From contig CAZILL010000001.1 of assembly GCA_964540105.1 (NCBI GenBank), positions 1,034,063-1,098,062 of the forward strand: a stretch of 64,000 bases of DNA. Reading direction: 5' to 3'. Shown here piece by piece: positions 49,715 to 64,000 of this stretch. The stretch comes from an uncultured Ignavibacteriales bacterium (GTDB taxonomy: Bacteria; Zixibacteria; MSB-5A5; GN15; FEB-12). The position numbers were made by a program, and so were the translations under genes. The notes under the pieces were generated by a model. That model did not search any database. It saw nothing but the letters and a program-made list of their open reading frames with translations, and was not told the DNA's origin. Positions within the stretch are counted from its first letter, which is position 1; every line of letters begins with the position of its first letter.

Positions 49715-51628
49715 TCAGACCGCGGGCAGAGCGGGTGCAGCGGCAAGACCGGGAATGAGACCAACCTGAATCTTTTGCGCCCGCTTCCTCTGTTCGGAGT
49801 CGAGGATAGCCTTGCGCATCCGAATCGATTTGGGGGTTACTTCCACCAACTCGTCGGATCGGATCCACTCCATGGCCTGTTCCAGCGTCATTTTGCGTGG
49901 GACATTGAGCGTGACCGCGATATCCTTGGTCGATGAGCGATGATTGGTCAGATTTTTGCGTTTGGTCGGGTTGCACGGCAGATCGTCGGGTCGGGAGTTT
50001 TCTCCCACAATTTGGCCGGAGTAGATTCGCTCGGTCGGTTCGACAAAGATCACGGCGCGTTCCTGAAGTCCCTCAATCGCGTACGCTGTCGCCGGACCGG
50101 TTTCAATACTGACCACCGACCCCCGATTTCGCGAGGCAATTTCTCCCCGCCATGGACCGTAACCGACGAAGCGCGACGACATGATCCCGAGCCCGCGTGT
50201 GTCGGTCAGGAACTCGGTGCGATAGCCGCTTAACCCCCGGGTTGGTATGGCGAACTCGATCCTGATAACATTCGTGCCGGCATTTTCGACCGTTCGCAGT
50301 TCCCCCTTGCGCCCCGCCAGCTTCTCGATCACGATTCCCTGATACTCTTCAGGGACATCAATGATCAACTGTTCCATCGGCTCAAGGGTGTTGCCATCAT
50401 CGTCTTTGTGCGTAATAACTTCGGGGCGTGAAATGCAGAACTCGAGCCCTTCGCGCCGCATCTCTTCAATCAGGATAGCCAGATGTAATTCACCTCGCCC
50501 GGAGACTTTGACTCCATCGGATCGTCCCAGATCTTCCATCCGCAAAGCGACGTTGGTGCGAAGCTCTCGCAGCAGCCGTTCTTTCAACTGGCGCAGCATG
50601 ATGGCCGTGCCATCGCCGCCGGAGAAAGGACCATTGTTAACGAGGAAGAACATGGAGACGGTCGGCTCCTCGATTTCGAGCGGCGGCAGAGCCGCCGATT
50701 GATCTTCAAGAGCTGAAAAAGTGTCGCCGATCCCGATTTCATTCGGTCCGGCCAGCCAGACAATATCGCCGGCGCTGATCTTGTCGGCCTCGACCCGCTG
50801 CAGACCGCGCGTCACCCACAGATGCACACCCTTTTCCTTCGACGAGTTGACAAACTCCCACCCGGCTTCCTGATCCGACGAATCCTTCCAGCGCATCACG
50901 AGCCGCGTGAAATCTTCCCCTTTGTCGAGTGTGCCACGGAGCACTCTTCCTCCACCGATCTGTCCAATGTAGTCGTTCCACGCCAGCGTGCTAATCTGCA
51001 TAAGGAACGGCCCCTCCTGGTCAACTTTCGGCGGGGGAACATGCTCGATCACCGTTTCAAACAGAGCTTCCATTCCCTCGCGCGCGTCTGTTTCAAGATT
51101 TCGTACAAACCAGCCGTCGAGTCCGGAGCCATAGAGTACCGGGAAATGCGCCTGCTCGTCAGTTGCCCCAAGATCGATAAACAGGTCAAAAGTCTTGTTC
51201 AAGGCGTAATCGGGTCGCGCGTTCGGTCGATCGACCTTGTTGATAATGACGATCGGTCGTAGGCCGAGCCGCAAGGCGCGCATCAGTACATACCGCGTTT
51301 GCGGCATTGGCCCTTCGTTAGCATCCACCAGGAGGAGAACAGAGTCGACCATCGAGAGCACGCGTTCAACTTCACCTGAGAAATCGGCATGCCCCGGCGT
51401 GTCGATAATGTTGATGAGATACTCGTTCCAGCTAACTGTGCAGTGCTTGGCCCGAATCGTTATGCCGCGCTCCCGCTCCAGATCATTGTTGTCCATCAGG
51501 CGCTCTGCGACCTGCTGATTATCCCGAAACGTGCGCGTTGCACGAAAGACAGAATCGATCAGAGTCGTTTTCCCGTGGTCGATGTGGGCAACAATGGCCA
51601 GGTTGCGAATGCGGTCAACTGGTATCAT
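49715..51628 (-). CDS. typA: Translational GTPase TypA/BipA
   Basis: The G-motifs [18 protein letters not shown] and NKVDR are present, with EF-G-like domain order. It has a short Ala/Pro-rich C-terminal tail. Confidence 0.95.
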
Positions 51629-52025
51629 ACGACAATCAAACCTTTCGTGGGGCGGATAAGTTTCCGCCTCGTTAGAAACTCCGCATCTGAGTCATTGATC
51701 AAACCATTGACGGGAAGATCATCCAAAAGAAACCCGGGTTCGACAATTGCCGCCCGGGTCAATGCAGATTCTAACAAGAATAACATGGAATGTTGAATTC
51801 TACAAGCCCTTTCTTGGACTTCTATGGAGAATGTCGGTCGTGGAGTCGGCCCCGCCGGAAGCAAGAGGTGAGTTGGCAGCAGATTGCCCTGCATTGACTT
51901 ACCAGTAGGAGTTGACGTCGTGAAGAGGATCAGCCTTTCAGTTTTTGTCGTTGACTTTCACTATCTATGATCGCAATTTGCTTAGAAACTACGAACCAGC
52001 AAAACCTGATATCGATGTAACCAAT

Positions 52026-53087
52026 ATGGGCAAACCAGCGGCTCGGATGGGAGATACAACAGTCCACGGCGGGACCATAGTGGTTGGGGCGCCGACGGTC
52101 CTGATCGGCGGCATGATGGCGGCTCGCGTGGGGGACATGCATGTCTGCCCCATGCTCAATCCCGGAGTGCCGCCACCACCCCACGTGGGAGGACCGATTA
52201 TGCCGCCCGGTGTTCCGACAGTCCTGATCTGTGGAACTCCGGCAGCCTGTGTCGGAGACATGGTCACCTGTGCCGGACCGCCTGACACGATCGCGCCTCC
52301 CGGTTGTCCGACCGTCATGATTGGAAGTGGCGGCGGCGGGGGCGGTGGAGCGGGCGCTGGCAGTGGTGGTCTTGACGTGGGACAGGGAGATAAGTCAAAA
52401 AGCTCCGAGCCGCCCAAAGGGCATTTCCTTGACGTCAGATTTGTCGACAAGGCGGGATTGCCAGTTGGCGGTGTCGAGTACGTGATCAAAGACCCAACAG
52501 GCGCCGTGACCACCGGCACCCTGTCGGGTCAACTGCGCAAAGGGGGAGTGCCCGAAGGGAACCATGAGATCATTCTGAAAGGGATCACGAAGGCGGAATG
52601 GTCGGTCAAGTCGGCTCGGGTCGGCGATACGGTGAAGCTCAAGGCGGAAACATCGGGAATCGATGACGGCGAAAAGGGGAGCTTCGACATCTTTATCAGG
52701 GAGTCGCGCTTCGCGCATACACTCTTGAAGACCATCGAGACCACAGTGCAGGGGGATAAGGTAGAGGCCGAATGGGAACTGCAAGTCGACGAAAAGTACC
52801 TCAACCTGCAGCGCGACAAACTTCAGAAAGGGGGTTATTCTTCCCCCACATTCTATTTCGTGGTCAAGACTCCCTACGGCGTTCGCCGCTCAGCCACGCT
52901 CGAGTATAAGGATTGGATCGAGCTGGAATATAAGAATGCCGAGGGGAAGCCGATGGCCAATAAAGAATACAAGCTCTTTCTCCCCAACGGGGAAGTGCGC
53001 AAAGGAAAGCTCGATGGCAACGGTTATGCCAAGATCAACAACGTTCCCCCCGGCCTGATCAAGGTGGTTGTGGATCCCCGGAAATAG
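52026..53087 (+). CDS. PAAR-domain spike-tip protein with a Gly linker and a roughly 240-aa C-terminal extension
   Basis: There are three PAAR motifs (KPAARMGD, MMAARVGD and TPAACVGD), each followed by a ...PTVLIGG/PTVLICG/PTVMIGS strand. A G-rich linker (GSGGGGGGGAGAGSGG) follows. The extension ends in short beta-rich segments, for example YKLFLPNGEVRKGKLDGNGYAKINNVPPG. I preferred the start at MGKPAAR (52026) over the TTG at 51945. Confidence 0.85.
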   Translation: MGKPAARMGDTTVHGGTIVVGAPTVLIGGMMAARVGDMHVCPMLNPGVPPPPHVGGPIMPPGVPTVLICGTPAACVGDMVTCAGPPDTIAPPGCPTVMIGSGGGGGGGAGAGSGGLDVGQGDKSKSSEPPKGHFLDVRFVDKAGLPVGGVEYVIKDPTGAVTTGTLSGQLRKGGVPEGNHEIILKGITKAEWSVKSARVGDTVKLKAETSGIDDGEKGSFDIFIRESRFAHTLLKTIETTVQGDKVEAEWELQVDEKYLNLQRDKLQKGGYSSPTFYFVVKTPYGVRRSATLEYKDWIELEYKNAEGKPMANKEYKLFLPNGEVRKGKLDGNGYAKINNVPPGLIKVVVDPRK

Positions 53088-53117
53088 AATCTTTTCGCTG
53101 ACGGATTGTGACCTCAG

Positions 53118-56100
53118 ATGACCTTGCCGCCATCCAAAGTGAAGTTCGCCGTGACTTCAAAGGGAGCCCTGCCTCCGACGCATCAGAAATTCGAGGTGCA
53201 GCAGGAACGAACTGTGGTCCATATTCTCGAAATGGAAGACGTGCTGTTCCACCACGACAGCGCGGTCATGATGCCCGAGAATCCGGAGGGAACCTCTTCC
53301 ACACAAGGAGGGGGCGCCACCCCTGAGCAGACGAAGATCAGCGGCGTCAAAGCGCTGGCGCTTGTGTTTAAGCAGTTCGAGTTCAATCCAAAGCAGAAGA
53401 TCATCATCGCCGGTCACACCGATACCTCCGGCGGTGCGACCTACAATTTCAAGCTTTCGGACCTGCGCTCGAAGAATGTTCTCTATCTATTGATCGGTTC
53501 GCAGAACGACTGGGCGAAGATCTGCCACGAGAAGCAGAAGATTGAAGACCACAAGCAGATTCTGACCTGGGTGTTCAAGAAACGTCACTGGCCCTGTAAT
53601 CCCGGGTCAATCGATAACAATTGGGATAGTCCGCTCGAACAGGCGCTGACGGCCTTCGTCAACTACTATAACATGGAGTACGCCGACAAGAAGAAAGTGG
53701 CTCGTCTCGACGACAACATGGTCACAATCGTGAAAGCGGACGGCCAGAAGCGCTGGCCCGTCCAGCTTTGGGAAGCGGTATATAATCTGTATAACGACGA
53801 ATTGTGCGAGGTCCTTGCGGACACGCCGGAACAGCTGGACAAGCGCCGCCTTGACACCCTTAGGTTCGTCGAAGACTCCAAGCCCTATGTGGCGTGCGGT
53901 GAGTCCTTTCCGATTCAGGCCAAGGACAAGAGCGACTATCGTTCCCAGACCAATCGCCGCGTCGAGATACGCTTCTTCGATGAGGGAGAAGCGCCGGCGC
54001 TCGACTGCCCCAAGGATGTCAGCGCTGTTCACAAGGAGAAAGATTGCCCGCTCTATCACCCTGATCTCTACGACCCGAAGTATATCTCCCCAAGCGATCT
54101 CTATGCGGTCATGTACCATGTCTGCTTTCGATTCTATGATCGGATCGCCAAGAAGCTTCGAGATGTCCCGAGAGGAATCACGATCAAGGCTTTCGAGAAC
54201 GATACAGTTCCCGTCGACATCGTGCAGGAAGAGGTCGTCAAATCGAATGACTCCTGCGTCTATGCCCTCAAACTGCAATTCAAGACAGCCCTCAACGACC
54301 CGAACCGAAAGAAGCTTCATTTTGAATTCACCACCGACAGCCAGTGGGTTTTCACTGACAGCGACAAAGTCGCCCCGACCGTTGTCACCAAGAAAGTGGA
54401 TGAAGTTAAGAAACTCGCTCTGCCGGACCGGTTCAAGTATTACGACCTGCCATTGCGCTGGTCATCGCGGAATTACTGGACACGCTATGACGGAGACATG
54501 GCCACGGGAGAACGATTTGAAAACGTACTCACAGTACAGAAGAAGCTCAAGCCCTTTGGCGGGAATGTCACTGCCCCCGACACGCCCTTGATCTTCTGCC
54601 TGGACGACCTCGTACTTCTTGATGTCAAGGATGGCACTCAGAACATATATGACTGCGACCATATCCACCCCAACTGCGATGTTGTCGCTGTCGACAAGGG
54701 GAAACCGCTCTCGGAGAAGTCGCGCGTGAAGATTTTCTTCGTCGATCAGACCAAGGGACTGCTGAATCTGTATCAGCCCGATGCAACCAAGCCGATGTCA
54801 AGCCGCATTCCGTTCAAAGTCAACCTGCTGCCGACGAAGGCCGACGACTCAGCTAACGCCAGGATTGTCTTCTTCCGGGACGGTTTCTATACAATCGGCG
54901 ACAAGCGAGCTGTGGCCGACGCCTCCTACGATCCGGCGAAACATGTTCTTGGGGCGCGGGCAGCAGTCAGAAACGACACCGACTTTCATCTCCATTGGCC
55001 GATGGGATACAATCACACCGAGTTCGGCTCAACCGGTGATTACGATCTGCATTATTTCCATCACCAGCATCTTGACGGCAAACATCCGGTCTCGTACACC
55101 ATCTCCTATGTGTCGATCAGTTTCATGATTGACTCGAGGAGACAGCCCGCGAATCCTCCGGCTCCTGCCGCCCCCATTAATCCCAAACCTTCGAAGGCCG
55201 ATGTCAAGCAGTTCGTCGATGAATTCGTCTACGACGCTGTCCGTCATTGGAACAAGAAGCAATACTTCCTCGAAGAAAAACCGGTGACGGAGACCTCGGT
55301 CGTCATTCGCCCCTTCTACTTTTTCGATGAACGCGAGACCTTTGTCGTCCCCGATCCGCAGCCGGACAACATCGACTTCGACACCAGACCCGACCCCGCT
55401 CATCCGGCTGTCTCGAATTTCACGGAACTGTTCTCAAACGTCAAAGCCCCGTCCATTCTCAAAGCGCGCCAAGATGCGCTCGGGGGAAAGTCAAAGTTCC
55501 TGGCGCTGGTGTGTCGTGATGAAAACGGACACTGGGGACCCGCGTATCAGTGGGCGATCCGCACCGAAGGGTATCTCTACTCATTGTTCAAACTCAACAA
55601 GTCGGGAGGTACTGACCAGAACGACGTCTTCAATCCCAAGGTACCCGTCACCGAACACGGGGACTCTTTCGGGGCGCACACGATGGCTCATGAACTGGGG
55701 CATGCTACAGGACAGCCCGATGAGTATGTCAAGACGCTCTACAAGCCGGACCCCAACGACAACTATGCGTCCCCGGATTTCGACCAATTCATGATCCAGT
55801 TATCGATGCCGGAGAACGTGACCTCAATGATGTTCCATAATGGTGCGCCTCGCTTGCACCATTTATGGTATCCGATGCACCAAATAATGGAAGCGACCAA
55901 AGCGGCCCCGCTGAAAACGCTCCTTCCCGACAAGACTTTTGTGGCTCGCCTGAAACGGGACACCTGGGATATCACCTACACGCGTTCGCTGACGGCCGTC
56001 GGTCCCTCGACCCGTCCCGCCGACATGGCTCTGCCAATGGCTCAAACGGCACAGTTTGAAGTCGCCCACTCGCCGCTCAAACGCCTGAATCTGGCGCTCT

Positions 56101-56651
56101 ACGATGTGGGGAAAGACGAATCGTCAATCAAGTACTTCCACCCCAACCAGGACGCCGCGCCAAGCCCTATTCAGTATCAGGCTGTGCTGGTTGTTCGATT
56201 GCTGCTGAGCTGTCAATTCACTCACGGCGCCTGGACCGGCAATCAACAGGCCGTTCGCGTGTTCCGGCTTCAACAACAATGGGAGTCATACGAGACCCCC
56301 TCAAACCCACCAGCCGGCAAGGGTTACTTTCGATTGGTGGGCGGATCCGGTGAGATCAAGAACATTTTCGTGCATTTTATGGCCGGCTTTCTCCCTTCGA
56401 ATTCCACGAGCGCCGCCTTGGCCAACAACAACTACGCCCTTGACTTCCATCACGCCAACGCGCCTGCGACCGGGACGAGAATCCCGAACACGGGCGGTTC
56501 CGTCATTATCTATGACAATGTAACGGCGGACGAATTTGTGCGCTATGCGCTGAACATAATCAATCCGGCGGCGCCGCTGGGTCAAATGAGCTATCTTAAG
56601 ACATGGACCGACGCCCGCCTGGGCGATTCCTATACTCTGGAGCAGTTCTGA
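53118..56651 (+). CDS. Leaderless 1177-aa protein: interrupted OmpA-like peptidoglycan-binding domain plus C-terminal HExxHxxGxxD zinc-metallopeptidase motif (candidate T6SS cargo effector)
   Basis: The OmpA_C blocks VLFHHDSAVMMPE, IIIAGHTDTSGGATYNFKLSDLRSKNV and RSQTNRRVEIRFF are separated by an insert of about 130 aa. That insert contains PGSIDNNWDSPLEQALTAFVNYYN, which resembles PG_binding_1. HTMAHELGHATGQPDEY lies at nt 55689-55727. There is no signal peptide or TM segment. Confidence 0.7.
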   Translation: MTLPPSKVKFAVTSKGALPPTHQKFEVQQERTVVHILEMEDVLFHHDSAVMMPENPEGTSSTQGGGATPEQTKISGVKALALVFKQFEFNPKQKIIIAGHTDTSGGATYNFKLSDLRSKNVLYLLIGSQNDWAKICHEKQKIEDHKQILTWVFKKRHWPCNPGSIDNNWDSPLEQALTAFVNYYNMEYADKKKVARLDDNMVTIVKADGQKRWPVQLWEAVYNLYNDELCEVLADTPEQLDKRRLDTLRFVEDSKPYVACGESFPIQAKDKSDYRSQTNRRVEIRFFDEGEAPALDCPKDVSAVHKEKDCPLYHPDLYDPKYISPSDLYAVMYHVCFRFYDRIAKKLRDVPRGITIKAFENDTVPVDIVQEEVVKSNDSCVYALKLQFKTALNDPNRKKLHFEFTTDSQWVFTDSDKVAPTVVTKKVDEVKKLALPDRFKYYDLPLRWSSRNYWTRYDGDMATGERFENVLTVQKKLKPFGGNVTAPDTPLIFCLDDLVLLDVKDGTQNIYDCDHIHPNCDVVAVDKGKPLSEKSRVKIFFVDQTKGLLNLYQPDATKPMSSRIPFKVNLLPTKADDSANARIVFFRDGFYTIGDKRAVADASYDPAKHVLGARAAVRNDTDFHLHWPMGYNHTEFGSTGDYDLHYFHHQHLDGKHPVSYTISYVSISFMIDSRRQPANPPAPAAPINPKPSKADVKQFVDEFVYDAVRHWNKKQYFLEEKPVTETSVVIRPFYFFDERETFVVPDPQPDNIDFDTRPDPAHPAVSNFTELFSNVKAPSILKARQDALGGKSKFLALVCRDENGHWGPAYQWAIRTEGYLYSLFKLNKSGGTDQNDVFNPKVPVTEHGDSFGAHTMAHELGHATGQPDEYVKTLYKPDPNDNYASPDFDQFMIQLSMPENVTSMMFHNGAPRLHHLWYPMHQIMEATKAAPLKTLLPDKTFVARLKRDTWDITYTRSLTAVGPSTRPADMALPMAQTAQFEVAHSPLKRLNLALYDVGKDESSIKYFHPNQDAAPSPIQYQAVLVVRLLLSCQFTHGAWTGNQQAVRVFRLQQQWESYETPSNPPAGKGYFRLVGGSGEIKNIFVHFMAGFLPSNSTSAALANNNYALDFHHANAPATGTRIPNTGGSVIIYDNVTADEFVRYALNIINPAAPLGQMSYLKTWTDARLGDSYTLEQF

Positions 56652-56657
56652 AAAGAG

Positions 56658-57860
56658 ATGATGCACGCAAAGCGATGGCTGCTGTTGTTTGGAGTGGCGC
56701 TGATGCCCGCAGCTTCATGCCATTCGGGCAAACAGGAGGTAACCGTGGCTAACCCCGTCTTACTTAACACAACCTTGTATGGCGATCGCCAGAATAGCTC
56801 CTCGCTTCCCGTCGACGGCCGACCGGACGGCGAAGCGGTCTGGGAGAAGCCGTCGATCCTGGCCGATCAGCCGCGCCCGGCTCTTCATTTGGCGATTGCC
56901 GATTCACTTCTCCTGGTATCGTACGGGGGAGTGATCGACGCTCGTCGGCTCGACAACGGTGAGCCGATCTGGCGCCGCCAGGTAGGTGGAAACGCACTCT
57001 TTGATCTGAGGCCAGAAGGGCTCGTGACCCTCGATCCTGGCGGCTTCTATCAACTCATCGCCATGAACCAGAAACTGACAGAACCGATCTCTTTGCCGTT
57101 TCTCTCATCAAAGGCAATTCTCCACTATAGCCGCCGTCTTGGGGATGAAATGCTTTATTGCTACGAGAGTATCCCTACGCCCACCAACAGCCCGGGCGAT
57201 GAATTCGGCGGCCCCAACTTCTCTCTGTATCGTTTCAATCTCAAAACCGATGATTTCGCGTGGCAATTCCGGCGACCTGAGAATGTTGTCACAGTCATAG
57301 AATCACCTGATGGCGCGCAGGTTGGGGTAGCAACCGGCCAGAATCTGTATCTACTCCCTGCTGAGGCTCGCTCAGACAGCGCAGTCTCGACGATCAGCTT
57401 CACACGTCTGGTTTCCTGTTCATGCGACCACGCCGCACGGATTCTCGCAGTCGTGGAGTTCCCGCAGGAAGAAGGTGGGCTCACCCTGCAGGCAATCAAC
57501 GCCAAGCACGAAGTGGAGTGGAAATTACCTCTTGGTGAGACGGTCCCGTCCCTGCAGCCGCCATCCGTCGGTCCCGGGGATGCCATCTACTTGATAGTAG
57601 ATGCCAAATTGCTGAGCGTAAGCGCTGGGGCAATCACGTGGACAGCGCCTATTCCGGGTAACGCCAACGAAGCTCGACTGACCGTGCTGAAAGATGGCTC
57701 GGTCCTCTGTGCCGCAGGAAGAACCCTGCTGCACATTTCATCACGAGGCGACATCCAGATGAACAAGCCGCTCAAAGAGGCGGCAACCTGTCGACCGATC
57801 ATGGACTCTCGCGGTCGAGTGATTGTCGCGGGACTGAACAGTGTAATCTGTATTGAGTGA
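56658..57860 (+). CDS. Lipoprotein with a BamB/PQQ-like beta-propeller appearance (candidate immunity protein)
   Basis: A signal peptide plus lipobox-like MPAASC is present. Repeated roughly 40-aa strand-rich units have W/G patterns (GEPIWRRQVGG, DFAWQF, EVEWKLPLG and ITWTAPIPG). The function is contextual inference. Confidence 0.55.
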   Translation: MMHAKRWLLLFGVALMPAASCHSGKQEVTVANPVLLNTTLYGDRQNSSSLPVDGRPDGEAVWEKPSILADQPRPALHLAIADSLLLVSYGGVIDARRLDNGEPIWRRQVGGNALFDLRPEGLVTLDPGGFYQLIAMNQKLTEPISLPFLSSKAILHYSRRLGDEMLYCYESIPTPTNSPGDEFGGPNFSLYRFNLKTDDFAWQFRRPENVVTVIESPDGAQVGVATGQNLYLLPAEARSDSAVSTISFTRLVSCSCDHAARILAVVEFPQEEGGLTLQAINAKHEVEWKLPLGETVPSLQPPSVGPGDAIYLIVDAKLLSVSAGAITWTAPIPGNANEARLTVLKDGSVLCAAGRTLLHISSRGDIQMNKPLKEAATCRPIMDSRGRVIVAGLNSVICIE

Positions 57861-58309
57861 GGATTCAAGATATGGCGCAAACGACCACCATGCCCACTTT
57901 CTCTCTCCTCCCTCCCAATGGTTGGGAGGATCAGACTGTCTATACGTTTAGGGGTCCCGACGACAGCGGGCATCAGCACTTTGTGACCTTGACCATCGAC
58001 CCCTCACCGGGCTCCGATGATGTCGCTGAATTCGCCCGAGTGCGGATCGATGCCACCCTCACCACTCTGCAGGGAGCTGAAACCCTCAAAGACGAGCCGA
58101 AAGAGCTTCCGAACGGTAATCCGGCTCATGAGTGTGTCTATAAGTGGATACCGGTTGACGGGACGGTGCGGTTCGTGAAGATTGTCTTTCTGTTGATTGG
58201 CGGTCGCGGGTACACATTCTCGGGGACTTTCTCCAGAAAGACCATCAAGACCATTGCCCTCGAGATGGATCAGATGGTGAACAGCTTCACTCCAACGCTT
58301 TCCAAATGA
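57857..58309 (+). CDS. DUF1795 (DcrB/Eag-type effector chaperone family)-like protein
   Basis: PTFSLLPPNGWEDQTVYTFRGP...FVTLTIDP...L..F...RIDATLTTLQG...YTFSGTF fits the DUF1795 F-x-LP-x-GW-x-D-x-T/S-V opening and size (about 145 aa). The GTG at 57857 overlaps the upstream stop; an alternative ATG lies at 57872. Confidence 0.6.
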   Translation: MRIQDMAQTTTMPTFSLLPPNGWEDQTVYTFRGPDDSGHQHFVTLTIDPSPGSDDVAEFARVRIDATLTTLQGAETLKDEPKELPNGNPAHECVYKWIPVDGTVRFVKIVFLLIGGRGYTFSGTFSRKTIKTIALEMDQMVNSFTPTLSK

Positions 58310-58325
58310 GTGAACGAAGATAGCC

Positions 58326-59192
58326 ATGGAACTGAAATTCTCCAAAGCCACTGACACGCCGCATAAGATCAAACTGGAATCGGACCTGATCGAAACCAGC
58401 TGGGCGAGTGGCGTCGCATATATGGGACTGCCGGCCGCATTTGTCGTTCGGACCTCCTTTGTCGGCAATGGCGCATCGGTCGAAGTCACGGGTAAGTCCG
58501 ATAAGGGGAAGAAGTGCGGTAAAGTCAAGGGTGAGATTTCCAACAACGCCTTCATGGGCGCTCTGGATATTCCCGACAATCTTGACCCAAAGGACAAGGT
58601 CTATTTCGAAGTGAAGCTCCCCAAGCATGGCCTGAACGGGGATTCGGACCTCATCCCGGTCAAGCCTGGTGTGCTCGTGACGAACATGAAGTGGAGCGCC
58701 AAAGAGGCGCGGCGTGGAGAGATTCTCACCCTTTCGGCCGACGTCCGTGGGGCTGCCGACGATACCGAGGTTCTGGTCACGATATACGAGTTTGATCGGG
58801 ACAGTATCCACGACAAGATTGCCGAGCTGAAGGCGGTGGTGAAGAACCAGCAGATCAGGTTGGACTGGGAGTATCAGTACTTCGAGGACACCGACGAAAT
58901 CCCGTCCGACGCCGAGCTGCAGCGATACGGTCGCAGCTACAACCCGCCGGAGTACTTTTTCACGGTGAAAGTGGAGAAGCAGGAATTCGGCAAGAAGCAA
59001 CAGGACTCCGGCCTGCTGGAGTTCAAAGACTGGATCGAGATTGAGGCTATTGATGACAGCGGACAGCCGATCAAGAATGCCAAATACAAAGTAACCCTCC
59101 CCGATGGAACTGAGCGAGAAGGTAGTCTCGATCAAAACGGACGGGCGCGCCTGGAGGATATTCCTCCCGGTGAATTCACCGTGGATCTCTGA
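58326..59192 (+). CDS. Hypothetical protein paralogous to the C-terminal extension of the PAAR protein (candidate adaptor)
   Basis: Residues about 122-288 align by eye with PAAR-protein residues about 217-380 (ORF-track numbering). Matching pairs are KWSAKEARRGEILTLSADVRG/EWSVKSARVGDTVKLKAETSG, RLDWEYQ/EAEWELQ, YFFTVKV/FYFVVKT, LEFKDWIEIE/LEYKDWIELE and KYKVTLPDGTEREGSLDQNGRA/EYKLFLPNGEVRKGKLDGNGYA. Confidence 0.6.
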   Translation: MELKFSKATDTPHKIKLESDLIETSWASGVAYMGLPAAFVVRTSFVGNGASVEVTGKSDKGKKCGKVKGEISNNAFMGALDIPDNLDPKDKVYFEVKLPKHGLNGDSDLIPVKPGVLVTNMKWSAKEARRGEILTLSADVRGAADDTEVLVTIYEFDRDSIHDKIAELKAVVKNQQIRLDWEYQYFEDTDEIPSDAELQRYGRSYNPPEYFFTVKVEKQEFGKKQQDSGLLEFKDWIEIEAIDDSGQPIKNAKYKVTLPDGTEREGSLDQNGRARLEDIPPGEFTVDL

Positions 59193-59369
59193 TGGATTTT
59201 ACGAATAGCTCGACGATTGGCGATTTGTGAATGATGCTCACAAGGGACGCTCATGTGTGATGGCAGCAGAGGCCGTGCCAGAGGCCGGAGCGGCGGGCGA
59301 ACCCGCGTAACGGTCGAACCGCAACTCGTGGAGCCAGCGGTCAGAGTGTCGCGCGTCTCCGTGCAGGAC

Positions 59370-60485
59370 ATGGCCGAGACGCATCATGTCGGCACACTCA
59401 CAAACACCTTTCATGGCGAGAATTTCAGCCAGGAAGAACAGCGCATCGCATTGGAGGCTAACGCTCTTTTCGAAGTCGCTCTCAACGTCCGAACCGTGAA
59501 TTACGTGACCGTTGTTCGACCACGCCGAGCGGGGGCAGCCGCCGCTGCCGGTGAGTTTATGCTCTTTAATGTCGTGCCCAACACCAATACCGGCACACTT
59601 GATATCTTCAAAATTGGCACCCCTCCGACCGCCCTCCCGAGTGACAACGACGTAGCGACCGTCACGCGGCGCTTGAATAGTTATGGAATCGCTTTCGACA
59701 ACGCCTGGCGAGACCAGGATAAGCGCGTCGCCTTGATGGCTCTCAACATATTGACCGATCAGGAACTTGAGCGTGTTCGGGGGCTTCACTTTCGGCGCAG
59801 AGGTACCGCGCCTCCTGAGGTTCATCAAAACGAATCTGAGCAAGAGGGGGGCGCCTATTGGGATAGCCAGCACACGGTGGACATATATAACCTCGGTATG
59901 GTTAATGGCGCGCTCATGTCGCTTGGCACGAATTCGACGAATCTCCTGCCGGGCTGTGCGCAGACAGTCCTGCATGAGGTAGGGCATGCTCTCGCGTTTG
60001 CCGAAGTCCGGCTCGCCGGCGAACGAAATCGTGAGGCACGGGCAAACCTCTTGAGGGAACGCGAGCGAATTTCTAATCGCTGGCCCGACTATTTCAGGGT
60101 CCGAAACCCGGATCCCGACCACTACGAGTATCAGTACGAGCAACCAAGCACGGTGCCGACCAGCGATCGGCCTGCCTATAGTTCTGACCTACAGAGCCTC
60201 AGGAGTGCAGAGAATGCCTTTTCAACAGCCAATCGCAGTTACACCGGCATGGACCAAAGCCACATGGCTGCAGATTTCCAGCGGATCCAGCGTCAGTTGG
60301 CTCCAGTGACTCCGTACAGCCGAACACGGCGCGCCAATATGGGGCGAGATGCCGAGCGCGTCCGGGCTGCATCGGAAGAGTTCCTGGCCGACAGCTTTGC
60401 CATATACCGATGGAATCCGGAGTGGCTTCGTGCCAATCGCCGAACCGTTTTTGACTTTTTCGACCAGAACCGTCATCTTCGATGA
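59370..60485 (+). CDS. Leaderless HExxH zinc-metallopeptidase-like protein (candidate second effector)
   Basis: TVLHEVGHALAFAE (HEVGH at nt 59973-59987) is present, with possible downstream ligand or stabilising Glu residues (EEFLADSFAIY). There is no signal peptide. I preferred the start at MAETHH (59370). The ORF-track start at 59253 adds an Arg/Gly-rich low-complexity leader. Confidence 0.55.
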   Translation: MAETHHVGTLTNTFHGENFSQEEQRIALEANALFEVALNVRTVNYVTVVRPRRAGAAAAAGEFMLFNVVPNTNTGTLDIFKIGTPPTALPSDNDVATVTRRLNSYGIAFDNAWRDQDKRVALMALNILTDQELERVRGLHFRRRGTAPPEVHQNESEQEGGAYWDSQHTVDIYNLGMVNGALMSLGTNSTNLLPGCAQTVLHEVGHALAFAEVRLAGERNREARANLLRERERISNRWPDYFRVRNPDPDHYEYQYEQPSTVPTSDRPAYSSDLQSLRSAENAFSTANRSYTGMDQSHMAADFQRIQRQLAPVTPYSRTRRANMGRDAERVRAASEEFLADSFAIYRWNPEWLRANRRTVFDFFDQNRHLR

Positions 60486-60647
60486 ATCAGCGAAATGGGC
60501 TATCGACAGGTATACTCCAGAACAAACCGCTTGACATAGTAGGTCGGTAATGCGGATATTTCTGATCGCACAGTCCGGCCCTTTGGGATGAATGCCGGAA
60601 GGTAACTGTTCCAGAAGATATAAGAGGCAAGGATTGCGGTATAACGA

Positions 60648-62105
60648 ATGGATATAGCTAATTACTCTTCCGACGCTCGCGCAGTGATCAAGAATGCCCG
60701 CGAAGTTGCGGCCAGCTTCCGGCACCCGGAAATCTACATCGAACATCTGCTCATGGCGACCATCCGCCATGAAGGCTCAGAAGTTGAGTCAATCCTCAAC
60801 CAGCTTGGCAAGAGCAAAGTGTTCGTCGAATCAATCATCGAAGAACATCTCAAATCTCAACCCTCCAAGATGTCAGCTCGTGACAATCTCACTATCGCGC
60901 CACCGGTGCAGGATGTGCTCATTCAGGCGATCGAGGAAAAGGCCAAGCTGTTCGATGCTCTCGTTGAACCACATCATATCTTCATCGCGATTCTCGACCC
61001 GAAATCGCATCTCTCCGGTTACATTCGCGAGAAAATCGACATTACGAAGGAAGATATCTATCGCGGCATCGCGGAAAGCAAGTCGGTGGCCGAAATCACG
61101 TCGAAAACGACCGTTGCTGGAGCCACGGGTGGTTCCGAAGCCACAGGAGAGGTGGCCGGAACCCTGCGCTATTGCATCGATCTGACCAACCAGGCGGCCG
61201 CCGGTGAGTTCGACGTGTGCGTGGGGCGCGAAAAGGAAGTTCAGCAGGTCATCCAGATTCTTCTTCGCCGCCGGAAAAACAGCCCGATCCTCGTCGGGGG
61301 AGCTGGTGTCGGGAAAACCGCCATTGTCGAAGGATTTGCGCGGGCGATCATCGATAAGAAAGTTCCCGCCGCCCTGTGTGATGCTAAAGTCATGGGGGTC
61401 GACATGGGGGCGTTGGTCGCTGGGGCCAAGTACAAAGGGGAATTCGAAGAGCGCTTCAAGAGTTTGGTCAGCGAAGTGGTCAAGACGGCGGGCAAGATCA
61501 TCCTGTTCATCGACGAAATCCACACCATCGTCGGCGCCGGTAACGGGGGAGGCGGCATGGACGCTGCTAATCTGCTCAAGCCCGCGCTGGCGCGCGGTCA
61601 GATTCGGCTGGTAGGCGCAACCACCGAAGAGGAATACATCAAGTACATCGAGAAGGACAAAGCCCTCGACCGGCGTTTTGAAAAGGTCAAGGTCGCTCCT
61701 CCGAATTACGATGAAGCTGTCCGTATTGTCAGCGGAGTCATTCCCAAGTACGAAACCCACCACAAGATTGTCTACTCCGCGGAAGCCATTACCGGATCGG
61801 TTCGTTACGCCCAGCGATACCTCAGCGAACGAAATCTCCCTGATATCGCGCTTGATATCATCGACGAAGCCGGGTCGGAGTTCAGCGTGAAAGAGGAGTT
61901 CGCCCGAGTAATCGTGCCGACGATCTCAACGCAGATCACGGAAATCGAGAAACTGGTTGCCGCGTGTGAAGGCAAGAGGGTGGCGACGGACAAGGAACCG
62001 TTTGACAAACTAAACATGGCCTACACCGAATTCACCCGCCTGGTTGACCGTCTTCAAGGTTACTGGGGACATCGTGCCGAAGTGGCGAAGGAGGCGAAGT
62101 CATGA
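60648..62105 (+). CDS. clpV: ClpV/ClpB-type AAA+ ATPase, N-terminal half (Clp_N domain, D1 ring, first part of middle domain)
   Basis: Clp_N repeats (ARAVIKNAREVAASFRHPEIYIEHLL) are present. D1 Walker A is GGAGVGKTAIVEG and Walker B is IILFIDEIHTIVGAG. KPALARGQIRLVGATT and a coiled-coil tail follow. It stops inside the middle domain. Confidence 0.85.
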   Translation: MDIANYSSDARAVIKNAREVAASFRHPEIYIEHLLMATIRHEGSEVESILNQLGKSKVFVESIIEEHLKSQPSKMSARDNLTIAPPVQDVLIQAIEEKAKLFDALVEPHHIFIAILDPKSHLSGYIREKIDITKEDIYRGIAESKSVAEITSKTTVAGATGGSEATGEVAGTLRYCIDLTNQAAAGEFDVCVGREKEVQQVIQILLRRRKNSPILVGGAGVGKTAIVEGFARAIIDKKVPAALCDAKVMGVDMGALVAGAKYKGEFEERFKSLVSEVVKTAGKIILFIDEIHTIVGAGNGGGGMDAANLLKPALARGQIRLVGATTEEEYIKYIEKDKALDRRFEKVKVAPPNYDEAVRIVSGVIPKYETHHKIVYSAEAITGSVRYAQRYLSERNLPDIALDIIDEAGSEFSVKEEFARVIVPTISTQITEIEKLVAACEGKRVATDKEPFDKLNMAYTEFTRLVDRLQGYWGHRAEVAKEAKS

Positions 62106-63208
62106 CCGCCGCTCCATTGGATTTCAAGGGTATCAAGCAGGACTTTGAACAGAGAATTGCCCAATTCAATCGACTGCGGGGGGTTGTTGAGAAGCTCGAG
62201 AAGAAGATCGAAGACGCGGACATCGCCGCCGTTGTCGCTCGCCGGACCGGCATCCCGCTTTCCAAGATGCTGACGGCCGAGAAAGATCGGCTGGTCAACA
62301 TGGAGTCGTTCCTGTCGGCCAAAATCATAGGTCAGGACAAAGCGATCAGCGCGATTGCCAATGCCGTCCGCAAAGCAAGAGCCGGACTGAAGATGCCGAA
62401 CCGACCCGTGGGGAGTTTCCTCTTCCTCGGTCCGACCGGTACCGGCAAGACGTATCTGCCGAAACTGCTCGCCGAATTCCTCTTCGACGATAAGAACGCG
62501 ATGGTACGCTTTGATATGTCCGAGTACATGGAAACCCATTCCGTCGCCAAGATGATCGGCGCTCCGCCCGGGTATGTCGGCTACGAAGCCGGGGGCATGC
62601 TGACCGAGGCCGTGCGCAAGAAGCCGTTCTCGATTGTCCTGTTCGACGAGGTCGAAAAGGCGCACCCCGACGTCTTCAATATACTGTTGCAGTTGCTTGA
62701 TGACGGCCGTCTTACGGACGGTCAGGGACGCACCGTCGATTTTTCCAACTGTCTGGTCGTCCTCACCTCGAATTATGCCGCCGACAAAATTCTCGACGCC
62801 GACCGTGAGGGGCGCGACCTCGACATGGATGAGGTTCGGGCGTTCCTCTTCACCAAGTTCCGCCCGGAACTGCTGAACCGTCTGAACGACATCATTATTT
62901 ATCACTCATTCAAGATGGAACAGATCGAGGTTATCGCCGGACTGGAATTCGATTCTCTGGTGAAACTGCTGAAAGATCAGAACATCAACGCCACCCTGAG
63001 CACCGAAGCGCGCAAGAAACTCGCCCGCGATGGCTACACGTTCGAACTGGGGGCGCGCCCCATTCAACGCATCATCGAGAAGGAGGTCATCAACAAGCTC
63101 TCGGTCGATATCATCACGGGAACTGTTGAACCGGGTGATCACGTTATGGTTGATATCGTAAACGACGCGTACGTGTTCACAAAGAAACCGAAAACGACCA
63201 TCGAGTAG
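62102..63208 (+). CDS. clpV: ClpV/ClpB-type AAA+ ATPase, C-terminal half (rest of middle domain, D2 ring, C-terminal domain)
   Basis: IAAVVARRTGIPLSKM and IIGQDKAISAIANAVRKARAGL are present. D2 Walker A is FLGPTGTGKTYL and Walker B is IVLFDEVEKAHPDVFN; sensor-2 is GARPIQR. The ATG overlaps the upstream stop as ATGA, and AAGGAGG ends 7 nt upstream of it. Confidence 0.85.
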   Translation: MTAAPLDFKGIKQDFEQRIAQFNRLRGVVEKLEKKIEDADIAAVVARRTGIPLSKMLTAEKDRLVNMESFLSAKIIGQDKAISAIANAVRKARAGLKMPNRPVGSFLFLGPTGTGKTYLPKLLAEFLFDDKNAMVRFDMSEYMETHSVAKMIGAPPGYVGYEAGGMLTEAVRKKPFSIVLFDEVEKAHPDVFNILLQLLDDGRLTDGQGRTVDFSNCLVVLTSNYAADKILDADREGRDLDMDEVRAFLFTKFRPELLNRLNDIIIYHSFKMEQIEVIAGLEFDSLVKLLKDQNINATLSTEARKKLARDGYTFELGARPIQRIIEKEVINKLSVDIITGTVEPGDHVMVDIVNDAYVFTKKPKTTIE

Positions 63209-63228: not shown

Positions 63229-63669
63229 ATGGGAAAATTTATGCTCGGCGCCTCGGAACGAATCCAGAAGGATGATTCAATACCCGTTGAACTCCTTCCC
63301 TCGAACAAGATCTTGTACGCCGCAAAACTCAACAGTGATCAGGACGCCGATGTCACTCCGACACGGTGCAACAACCTCAAAGACGTGTTTGAGAAATTCC
63401 GCCCAGAGTTTTCCGTAGAAATGGAAAATACGCAGGGGGAACAGGTGAACGCATCATTCGAAATTCGCGCAATGAAGGATTTCACCTCGAAAGAACTGAT
63501 CGAAAAGAACGACCATCTGTCCAAGACCTATTATGGCAAATCGATGATGGACGATCTCGAGACCCAGTTGAAGAAGAACAACGCTCTGAAGAAAACGCTT
63601 GAAGACAAGCAGAAGAAAGAAGCTCTCCTAAAGGTCGCCAAGTACTATATCGACCTGCTGAGCGAATAA
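63229..63669 (+). CDS. tssB: T6SS contractile sheath small subunit-like protein (TssB/VipA-like)
   Basis: It is 146 aa with GGAGGT 6 nt upstream. By-eye resemblances to VipA blocks are VELLPSNKILYAAKL (cf. ELPLKTLVVGDF), NLKDVFEKFRPEFSVEMEN and FEIRAMKDFTSKELIEKNDHL (cf. LNFKSLADFAPDAV). It lies between clpV and a probable tssC. Confidence 0.6.
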   Translation: MGKFMLGASERIQKDDSIPVELLPSNKILYAAKLNSDQDADVTPTRCNNLKDVFEKFRPEFSVEMENTQGEQVNASFEIRAMKDFTSKELIEKNDHLSKTYYGKSMMDDLETQLKKNNALKKTLEDKQKKEALLKVAKYYIDLLSE

Positions 63670-63688: not shown

Positions 63689-64000
63689 ATGGGTGAAGAA
63701 GAAAAAAGAGAGCTTCAGCCTCAGGCCGCGCAGGCCATGGAGGCACAGCGCGAAAAGCCGGCTGCCGAAAAGATATCTGACAAGGATTTTGCTTCTCTGA
63801 TTGGTGACTCCTTTGGCGACTTCAGCAAACTGGCGGCGTTGTTGCCGTCATTCAAGACCGCCGACGGCGATCTGGTCCGCGGCGTCGAGTGGCTCGACCC
63901 GAAGAAAGACTTCCAGCGCAAGGAGTTCCTGACCAAGAAAGAGTTCGCCAAGCAGCGCGCCTTGCTGGCCGAACGCCTGAAAATCTGGACCGAGCATTTG
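63689..64000 (+). CDS. Probable T6SS sheath large subunit (TssC/VipB-like), N-terminal 104 aa; runs off the right edge
   Basis: Absent from the ORF track because it has no in-window stop. It reads MGEEEKRELQPQAAQAMEAQ...KKEFAKQRALLAERLKIWTEHL, with GAGGTG 7 nt upstream of the ATG. The call rests on its position right after the tssB-like gene. I recognised no diagnostic motif in the part visible. Confidence 0.4.
   Translation, partial: MGEEEKRELQPQAAQAMEAQREKPAAEKISDKDFASLIGDSFGDFSKLAALLPSFKTADGDLVRGVEWLDPKKDFQRKEFLTKKEFAKQRALLAERLKIWTEHL

Follow-up and report, generated by a model that had tools for sequence, protein, structure and literature searches.

What is encoded by six closely spaced genes that stand in front of the sheath genes of a type VI secretion system (T6SS)? 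The question arose from a 64,000-nucleotide stretch of an uncultured Ignavibacteriales bacterium placed among the Zixibacteria (assembly GCA_964540105.1, contig CAZILL010000001.1, positions 1,034,063 to 1,098,062), referred to here as the window. T6SS cargo is almost uncharted outside Proteobacteria and gut Bacteroidales, and an original prediction, made from the letters of the window, had read the six genes as a cargo island with adaptor, chaperone, effectors and immunity proteins. Our analysis indicates, with a probability of about 0.65, that these genes make up the cargo and loading module of a T6SS typical of Zixibacteria and other bacteria of the FCB group (Fibrobacterota, Chlorobiota, Bacteroidota), acting as proposed below. 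The general reading of the prediction was right, whereas its pairing of accessory proteins with effectors, its peptidase families, its single clpV and its placing of typA needed revision.

In order, the six proteins are a PAAR protein with a three-part beta-sandwich extension, a candidate effector of 1177 amino acids (aa; effector 1), a 400-aa lipoprotein, an Eag-like protein of the DUF1795/DcrB family, a free 288-aa paralogue of the PAAR extension (called the adaptor for brevity) and a candidate effector of 410 aa (effector 2). The well conserved free paralogue and the Eag-like protein belong to the module as constant components, and there are two variable cargo positions, slot 1 after the PAAR gene and slot 2 after the adaptor gene.

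Gene order and conservation of the module

All six open reading frames (ORFs) announced for positions 51945-60485 were present in the ORF listing, closely spaced on the + strand. Their position directly after typA was borne out, whereas typA itself (49715-51628) sits on the opposite strand, divergent from the run. Downstream, the window continues with clpV (two ORFs), tssB and tssC. Extension of the contig to the right, which the prediction had proposed as a check, was possible with the identical contig of a public sequencing run; past the window end it encodes TssC (476 aa, PF17541), Hcp, VgrG, TssE, TssF, TssG, TssK and two more conserved proteins. T6SS core genes thus do follow the cargo genes on the same contig, and the system is complete on its tail and baseplate side.

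About 160 related loci were compared in total. One set was anchored on effector 1 with one genome per species (80 loci), and a second was anchored on TssB, which made it independent of the cargo, effector 1 included. The 80 effector-1 loci came from Zixibacteria, Ignavibacteria, Fibrobacterota/Chitinispirillaceae, Aminicenantes, Krumholzibacteriota, GN15, Gemmatimonadota and a few Desulfobacterales. Mapping of neighbourhoods across these relatives, another proposed check, recovered the order PAAR with extension, large effector, 400-aa protein, DcrB-like protein and 288-aa protein in about 60 of the 80. Among TssB-anchored loci with enough flanking sequence, 29 of 31 carried the DcrB-like gene and the 288-aa gene upstream of clpV. 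Overall, the layout recurs in hundreds of genomes of uncultured bacteria (Zixibacteria, Ignavibacteria and Fibrobacteres-type). The module was found beside two different T6SS types: the window's own, with split ClpV, a 146-aa TssB and a PF17541 TssC, and a second with an 872-aa ClpV, a 710-aa VgrG directly upstream, and FHA and PP2C regulators nearby.

This distribution bears on the possibility that the large proteins are housekeeping envelope enzymes that lie beside a T6SS by chance. Upstream, the window does carry unremarkable chromosomal genes (carAB, typA, and genes for capsule synthesis and RND efflux), and public annotations of the large proteins read "OmpA family protein" or "hypothetical". 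However, in about 60 of 80 loci the 1177-aa family has a PAAR, DcrB-like, adaptor or T6SS core gene at its side, and its orthologues lack secretion signals. Both observations contradict this scenario, which the prediction had named as its refutation, and we consider it extremely improbable.

Several variant layouts were observed. Six loci (L009-L011, L013, L015, L018) hold a stand-alone set of four genes (PAAR, effector, lipoprotein, DcrB), and no T6SS core gene lies closer than 10 kb. A clade with a module of these four genes has unrelated cytochrome genes next to it. Three others (L060, L061, L063) hold a module with a divergent effector 1, an adaptor and an effector-2 homologue. In some genomes two paralogous modules co-occur, the four-gene set and an adaptor/effector-2 module.

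Effector 1 and the neighbouring lipoprotein

Three regions can be told apart in effector 1: an OmpA-like domain (about aa 35-290) that is predicted to bind peptidoglycan and is split by a helical insert of about 130 aa (127-256), a middle part of beta-rich domains, and a metzincin-like zinc peptidase at the C-terminus. The Pfam OmpA model (PF00691) matched at E = 2e-6 (28.4 bits against a cut-off of 27.2). In an alignment of 20 diverse homologues, G99, H100, D102, T103, G105, S114, R117 and N279-R-R-V-E283 were invariant. Residues of this OmpA/Pal type contact the diaminopimelate stem of peptidoglycan.

The peptidase motif, HELGHATGQPDEY, occupies aa 858-870 (nt 55689-55727) and satisfies the extended metzincin pattern HExxHxxGxxH/D. 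Among the same 20 homologues H858, E859, G861, H862, D868, Y870 and M905 were invariant and G865 nearly so. Metzincins are recognised by HExxHxxGxxD with a conserved Met further on, and effector 1 is accordingly described as a putative metzincin-type peptidase. Its profile matched OmpA, Pal and OprF in the PDB with E-values down to 3e-5, serralysin and snapalysin weakly, and an M6-domain model weakly. At least 272 full-length members, 1080-1250 aa in length, make up the family, and their annotations go no further than hypothetical or "OmpA family". An AlphaFold2 model of the window protein had a mean pLDDT of 79.6 and a pTM of 0.75.

No leader or N-terminal hydrophobic segment was detected in any of 69 complete orthologues (69/69), and a hydropathy scan of the window protein revealed no transmembrane segment. 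Export through Sec or Tat would consequently be closed to effector 1, although the protein has a predicted peptidoglycan-binding domain. This combination fits a predicted T6SS effector that acts in the periplasm of a target cell.

A different use of the same protein was weighed, namely that it is a self-directed factor for cell-wall remodelling or anchoring of the producer's own T6SS (compare TagX, MltE and the OmpA-like extensions of TssL/TagL), with the lipoprotein as partner or regulator. The family is almost universally tied to T6SS loci, of two types and in several phyla, at constant length; its OmpA-like peptidoglycan-binding residues are conserved; and the OmpA-like segment weakly matches the OmpA domain of long-form TssL. 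Against these stands the lack of a signal peptide or membrane anchor in all 69 orthologues, so that the own periplasm could be reached only through the T6SS itself. The protein is always preceded by a PAAR or VgrG with an adaptor-type domain, and unrelated genes take its position in some loci of the same T6SS type. It also evolves much faster than the core genes, and its partner faster still. We judge the self-directed role improbable. Identity with one of the membrane-associated proteins TssN-R of the Bacteroidota T6SSiii was also considered and ruled out: those are membrane proteins or lipoproteins (PMC10781749), and members of the effector-1 family lack signal peptides as well as transmembrane segments.

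Effector 1 and the following lipoprotein had been predicted to form an effector-immunity pair, and the genomic signatures agree: the effector is leaderless, its neighbour is secreted, and the lipoprotein is the least conserved member of the module. Almost every locus has a protein of 370-450 aa after effector 1, and most of these proteins are secreted or lipoproteins. Median identities to the window proteins, taken across loci of the window's T6SS type, were 75% for TssB, 68-78% for the ClpV halves, 68% for the PAAR domain, 54.5% for the 288-aa protein, 46% for the DcrB-like protein, 33% for effector 1 and 24% for the lipoprotein. This gradient is the series expected from core through accessory and effector to a putative immunity protein. 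Judged by these patterns, the two proteins behave like an effector-immunity pair.

Of the earlier description of the lipoprotein, the signal peptide and the lipobox AASC were confirmed, whereas the beta-propeller-like repeats were matched only weakly by a PQQ_2/BamB-like model, below the Pfam threshold. In the hydropathy scan the lipoprotein had one borderline internal segment (aa 75-93), and the five other module proteins had none. In six loci (L036, L042, L043, L047, L050, L076) the homologue of the 400-aa protein is devoid of a signal peptide, and an additional lipoprotein of about 300 aa is encoded ahead of the DcrB-like gene.

Effector 2

Effector 2 starts without a leader with a Gly/Arg/Ser-rich stretch that holds an RSGG motif and is followed by a beta-strand-like run. 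Its HEVGH lies at aa 241-245 (nt 59973-59987) and a TPY...EEFLADSF segment at aa 353-382. Pfam returned no family at E <= 0.1, ATLF included. Word-indexed searching retrieved two homologues of the 410-aa protein, and an exhaustive profile search was needed to collect the family, which is rare at full length (14 representatives at E < 1e-30). In about 140 distant relatives, the region corresponding to aa 125-400 forms the C-terminal domain of longer proteins. PF13699 eCIS_core (DUF4157) was located upstream of this domain in 9 of 10 distant relatives scanned; three of the 10 had weak ATLF matches, one of them a weak M90 match as well. In cargo toxins of extracellular contractile injection systems (eCIS), DUF4157 serves as the marker and the toxin domain lies at the C-terminus (PMC8213781).

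A profile of three sequences found no match in the PDB. With 26 sequences, the profile matched anthrax lethal factor (E = 5e-4) and the Pro-Pro endopeptidase (PPEP) Zmp1, and the match runs through T-P-Y...EEFFAEaF, aligned with TSYG...EFFAEAF of lethal factor. Within the family H241 and E242 are invariant, H245, T353 and Y355 nearly invariant, and the consensus of the downstream segment is EEFFAEAF. Taken together, the HExxH, the EEFFAEaF segment and the profile matches identify effector 2 as a putative lethal-factor/M34-like zincin preceded by a presumed delivery region, the N-terminal 120 aa. In L059-L063 and L165, slot 2 likewise holds a homologue. The earlier statement that neither large protein resembles a nameable toxin family did not survive, as effector 1 with its metzincin-type motif and effector 2 with its lethal-factor/M34-like domain can both be placed in known peptidase groups.

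The second cargo position and a candidate loading motif

The gene after the free adaptor had been proposed as an effector position, and slot 2 is hypervariable, as expected for swappable effectors. In 44 loci of the genome set it holds 24 unrelated clusters, and 29 when the metagenome set is added. The proteins range from 123 to 1072 aa and carry PG_binding_1, LysM, OmpA, Metallophos or Het-C domains or, more often, none. A small protein with a signal peptide follows the slot-2 gene in several examples. Slot 1 is usually filled by the 1177-aa family; in eight loci (L095, L111, L125, L140, L142, L148, L155 and also L165) it holds a gene of another family, and the PAAR extension is kept. Since slot 1 usually belongs to one family and slot 2 is freely exchanged, two cargo positions are distinguished.

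Internal transmembrane-like helices were found in 13 of the 44 slot-2 proteins. Those of L045, L052, L031, L034, L048 and L075 (750-900 aa) have two to five internal hydrophobic helices. Their helices suggest membrane-inserting or pore-forming toxins, and the Eag-like protein could have its natural clients among such proteins.

A Gly/Ser/Lys/Arg-rich stretch that contains (S/T)G(K/R/E...) stands at the start of many slot-2 proteins, and a beta-strand-like run comes after it; the corresponding region of effector 2 (59253-59350) is GRSGGRTRVTVEP. The pattern [KRSAG][ST]G[RKSGQET] within the first 32 residues was present in 14 of 24 slot-2 clusters vs. 5.2% of 833 control genes, and in five of seven metagenome clusters unrelated to the first set vs. 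3.2% of 441 controls. Genes with the motif include those of L006, L007, L017, L020, L021, L031, L039, L045, L048, L103, L115, L140 and L148. A similar (S/T)G...F.F element occurs at aa 20-30 of the effector-1 family. To judge from its recurrence in unrelated proteins, the N-terminal (S/T)G(K/R/E) motif may mark them for loading.

PAAR extension, free paralogue and Eag-like protein

The predicted three-motif PAAR protein with a Gly linker and a long extension was confirmed, the extension measuring about 230 aa. The PAAR_motif score of 77.5 bits passed the family cut-off of 27. The PAAR domain covers about aa 28-135, the linker about aa 128-141 and the extension about aa 150-380, which is built from a TTR-like, a beta-sandwich and a second TTR-like part in this order. 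The AARMGDTTVH segment reads as the first strand of a complete PAAR domain. The true start is probably the ATG at 52026 (MGKPAARMGD), because the resulting product of 353 aa agrees with the 350-390 aa of orthologues, which were found directly upstream of the effector in 60 loci. Matches of prealbumin-like/SpaA and CarboxypepD_reg models to aa 330-376 were weak and below threshold (Pfam, E = 0.06). VgrG, Hcp, TssB, TssC, TssE, TssF, TssG and TssK are encoded with the PAAR protein on the contig.

The 288-aa protein proved to be a paralogue of the PAAR extension, as had been claimed (BLASTP, E = 1e-27, 33% identity over 169 aa). Its AlphaFold2 model has three beta-sandwich domains (pLDDT 86.7). 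The top Foldseek matches were macroglobulin-domain arrays, complement C3/C4 and alpha-2-macroglobulin, with low TM-scores, and SpaA/CarboxypepD_reg models matched below the Pfam threshold (E = 4e-4). Two fusions were found among the related loci. In L081, a VgrG encoded directly upstream of an effector-1 homologue ends in the same small domain that terminates the PAAR extension, and in L080 the first two adaptor domains are fused to an OmpA-type effector. On the strength of domain architecture, these fusions point to spike attachment and effector contact.

The DUF1795 protein scored 31.1 bits with PF08786 (cut-off 27.2), and 32 of 32 orthologues were above the threshold. No signal peptide was found among about 60 orthologues of the family. 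A PDB search with the single sequence gave no match, and a deeper alignment was required; the only PDB matches of the family profile were EagT6 (E = 2.4e-4) and SciW, which upholds the predicted kinship with Eag chaperones. Its start is likely at 57872.

The proposal that this chaperone candidate and the free adaptor serve effector 2 was not supported. The DUF1795 gene persists in four-gene modules without adaptor or effector 2, and the adaptor persists where slot 2 is empty. Since the DcrB-like gene is kept in the four-gene clade, it is not assignable to effector 2 alone.

Adaptors or generic spike parts

The same three proteins might be generic structural or assembly parts of the spike, for example of a decorated tip, and no cargo adaptors at all, with the effectors riding inside Hcp, on VgrG or on the PAAR domain. 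In favour of this explanation, the adaptor is strongly conserved: 120 matches listed of 688 homologues share 54-77% identity, it is encoded in nearly all TssB-anchored loci, and it is kept with an empty slot 2 in L037 and L040. A co-variation test showed adaptor similarity to track lineage and not cargo family, the PAAR extension likewise did not co-vary with cargo and is retained beside a different slot-1 protein, and the DcrB gene is retained in modules without adaptor. It is opposed by the findings that the slot-2 gene begins no more than about 130 bp after the adaptor stop in the listed loci, that adaptor-effector and VgrG-TTR fusions occur beside effector homologues, and that unrelated slot-2 proteins have an N-terminal motif in common. 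In other T6SSs, moreover, C-terminal TTR-like domains of VgrG and PAAR proteins are established effector-binding adaptors (PMC6899460). We hold the generic explanation of the three proteins to be unlikely, but a serious contender.

The original view of the PAAR extension and the free adaptor as specific to their cargo is not supported, both being conserved irrespective of cargo. In the co-variation test, cargo-specific adaptors found no support, as the window's adaptor is closer to those beside unrelated cargo (L066, L070, L037) than to those beside effector-2 homologues (L059-L063). Adaptor similarity by lineage and the persistence of the PAAR extension beside other cargo make both look like generic spike or loading parts.

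A number of observations count against the cargo-and-loading reading as a whole. For the adaptor and the PAAR extension, the missing co-variation and the retention beside an empty slot mean that a generic structural role fits at least as well as cargo binding. Known Eag chaperones bind the N-terminal transmembrane helices of prePAAR effectors; a client of this kind is not apparent, as the hydropathy scan showed no hydrophobic helix in the PAAR protein, effector 1, the 288-aa protein or effector 2. The model of effector 1 is of low confidence in the catalytic region (aa 836-850, 868-894 and 906-910), and whole-chain Foldseek recovered the OmpA-like part alone. A few lipoprotein homologues have no signal peptide. 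The motif pattern was defined after seeing the data and the independent set comprised seven clusters, which makes it a lead and not a result. Every protein-protein contact in the mechanism proposed below is inferred.

Finally, the expected immunity set for both effectors was not complete, as effector 2 has no adjacent immunity candidate. No co-directional immunity gene follows it in the window (60486-60647), in L060, L061 and L063, or in L165 (9228-9442). In this it differs from several other slot-2 effectors, where a small secreted protein comes next. Effector 2 may therefore act on a target absent from the producer, or its immunity gene may be encoded elsewhere.

Proposed mechanism

According to the cargo-and-loading reading, effector 1 would be made in the cytoplasm without a leader and held by the PAAR extension, the Eag-like protein probably helping. 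Fired into the periplasm of a neighbouring Gram-negative cell, it would dock on target peptidoglycan through its OmpA-like domain, and the metzincin-like domain would cut peptidoglycan peptides or peptidoglycan-anchored envelope proteins. The adjacent lipoprotein would protect the producer. Effector 2 would be loaded via its N-terminal region onto the free adaptor, which would itself be docked on the spike. The likely recognition element would be the (S/T)G(K/R/E) motif and beta-strand common to unrelated slot-2 effectors, and the target hit by effector 2 may be one that the producer does not have.

A more specific version can be offered tentatively. Here, an FCB-group loading system of macroglobulin-like modules, PAAR-fused and free, together with a DUF1795 protein without a transmembrane client, would recognise the N-terminal (S/T)G(K/R/E)-plus-beta-strand signal as a portable export tag. 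If so, the tag could help to find, and perhaps engineer, cargo in lineages without known T6SS effectors, and a motif that acts as a loading signal would be a rare sequence-level export tag for T6SS.

The module also offers a reading rule, by which the genes after a PAAR protein with extension and after the 288-aa protein are taken as candidate effectors in Zixibacteria, Ignavibacteria, Fibrobacterota, Krumholzibacteriota and related metagenome-assembled genomes. The rule exposes more than 25 unrelated candidate toxin families, most of them without a Pfam domain. The free paralogue of the spike extension is a possible adaptor class, the use of Eag-type proteins would be widened beyond transmembrane clients, and effector 2 links a putative T6SS effector domain to eCIS cargo.

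Relation to known systems

The arrangement is known in kind (spike-loaded cargo, adaptors, a chaperone and an effector-immunity pair), and its component families are all uncharacterised. Literature searches returned no description of the module, of a free spike-extension paralogue or of T6SS cargo in these phyla.

The closest counterpart is the C-terminal metallopeptidase of VgrG2b with its immunity protein PA0261 (Tpe/Tpi family) in the H2-T6SS of Pseudomonas aeruginosa (PMC6899460). Both systems have a spike-borne HExxH zinc peptidase for the target periplasm (predicted here), a TTR-like domain between spike and toxin (putative here), and a periplasmic or lipoprotein immunity protein (a candidate here) encoded directly downstream. 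Unlike in VgrG2b, the peptidase here is a separate 1177-aa cargo without VgrG fusion and has an OmpA-like peptidoglycan-binding domain and HExxHxxGxxD; unlike PA0261, the immunity candidate is a 400-aa lipoprotein, possibly propeller-like. VgrG2b was absent from the effector-1 profile matches in the PDB at E <= 1, so effector 1 appears to represent a different peptidase family.

C-terminal TTR adaptor domains are known on PAAR and VgrG proteins, for example on VgrG1 of enteroaggregative Escherichia coli with Tle1 (PMC6899460, PMC7376260). The likeness consists of a small, putatively prealbumin-like C-terminal domain on a spike protein with a cargo effector gene adjacent. In contrast to those adaptors, the extension described here is three-part and about 230 aa long, and the operon also encodes a separate, highly conserved paralogue of it. 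The prealbumin-type Pfam matches are below threshold, and the nearest solved folds of the adaptor are macroglobulin-domain arrays.

The Eag (DUF1795) chaperones EagT6, EagR1 and SciW work with prePAAR effectors, in which a single polypeptide contains a prePAAR motif, then N-terminal transmembrane helices, and a PAAR domain (bioRxiv 10.1101/2020.10.28.356139, PMC7773334). As with these chaperones, the DUF1795 protein described here is small and cytoplasmic and shares its operon with candidate T6SS effectors. The PAAR protein of the module, however, is complete and free-standing, and the three candidate clients lack a hydrophobic helix.

Effector 2 resembles lethal factor in HExxH and the downstream T-x-Y...EEFFAEaF vs. 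TSYG...EFFAEAF, and DUF4157/eCIS_core proteins in the C-terminal, toxin position of the domain. It differs from M34/ATLF and M90 (MtfA) zincins, as Pfam ATLF does not match the window protein and the HExxH-EEF spacing is about 130 aa. Unlike eCIS cargo, it is T6SS-associated and its N-terminal 120 aa are unrelated to DUF4157. As with MIX, FIX, Rhs and DUF4123/DUF2169, polymorphic effectors would be flagged by a conserved neighbour or N-terminal marker. Those domains are absent, and the candidate marker is instead the short (S/T)G(K/R/E) motif together with adjacency to the 288-aa gene. The lack of MIX, FIX, Rhs and prePAAR-TMD markers noted originally was confirmed by Pfam/NCBIfam and hydropathy scans of the six proteins.

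Features of the window and neighbouring genes

Coordinates are collected in Table 1. The clpV gene announced downstream of the cargo genes is present, but split into two ORFs that overlap by ATGA and encode one ATPase domain each. The split is genuine and no frameshift error, given that it is kept in at least 40 related loci; a few relatives (L047, L053, L070, L160, L165) have a fused clpV of 813-876 aa.

Table 1. Module and T6SS core genes in the window
Feature	Position (nt)	Strand	Evidence
PAAR spike-tip protein with C-terminal extension	51945..53087	+	Pfam PAAR_motif (PF05488), E = 9e-22, three stretches
Candidate effector 1, leaderless 1177-aa protein	53118..56651	+	OmpA-like segment, HExxHxxGxxD peptidase motif
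Candidate immunity protein 1, 400-aa periplasmic lipoprotein	56658..57860	+	Signal peptide and lipobox AASC
Eag-like DUF1795/DcrB-family cytoplasmic chaperone candidate, ~150 aa	57857..58309	+	PF08786
Free paralogue of PAAR extension; three beta-sandwich domains, the last small and TTR-like	58326..59192	+	BLASTP
Candidate effector 2, 410 aa; ~120-aa N-terminal region and putative C-terminal lethal-factor/M34-like zinc peptidase domain	59253..60485	+	HEVGH
ClpV/TssH N-terminal half (Clp_N and first ATPase domain)	60648..62105	+	NCBIfam TssH, E = 2.5e-112; Pfam matches
ClpV/TssH C-terminal half (second ATPase domain and ClpB_D2-small)	62102..63208	+	Pfam AAA_2, E = 6e-63
TssB, small sheath subunit	63229..63669	+	Pfam T6SS_VipA, E = 1.4e-7; NCBIfam TIGR03358
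TssC, large sheath subunit, interrupted by window end	63689..64000	+	Contig continuation, 476-aa PF17541 TssC

TssC and Hcp of the contig match Pfam families of the Bacteroidota type (PF17541, PF17642); the T6SSiii membrane proteins TssN-R were not evident at the locus. An Rfam search of the window gave no match, and a promoter and terminator scan yielded matches at chance level only. Two conserved genes lie 3' of TssK (L001 18699-20441; L002 6121-9309), for which no Pfam or NCBIfam name was found. One encodes a 305-aa protein with a single C-terminal transmembrane helix and TssL-like topology, and the other a protein of 729-740 aa that has a Walker A motif (GxxxxGKT) but lacks transmembrane segments. 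Far upstream and unrelated to the cargo module, positions 4979-9091 encode a 1370-aa protein made up almost entirely of FG-GAP/VCBS-type repeats (14 stretches, E = 9e-119).

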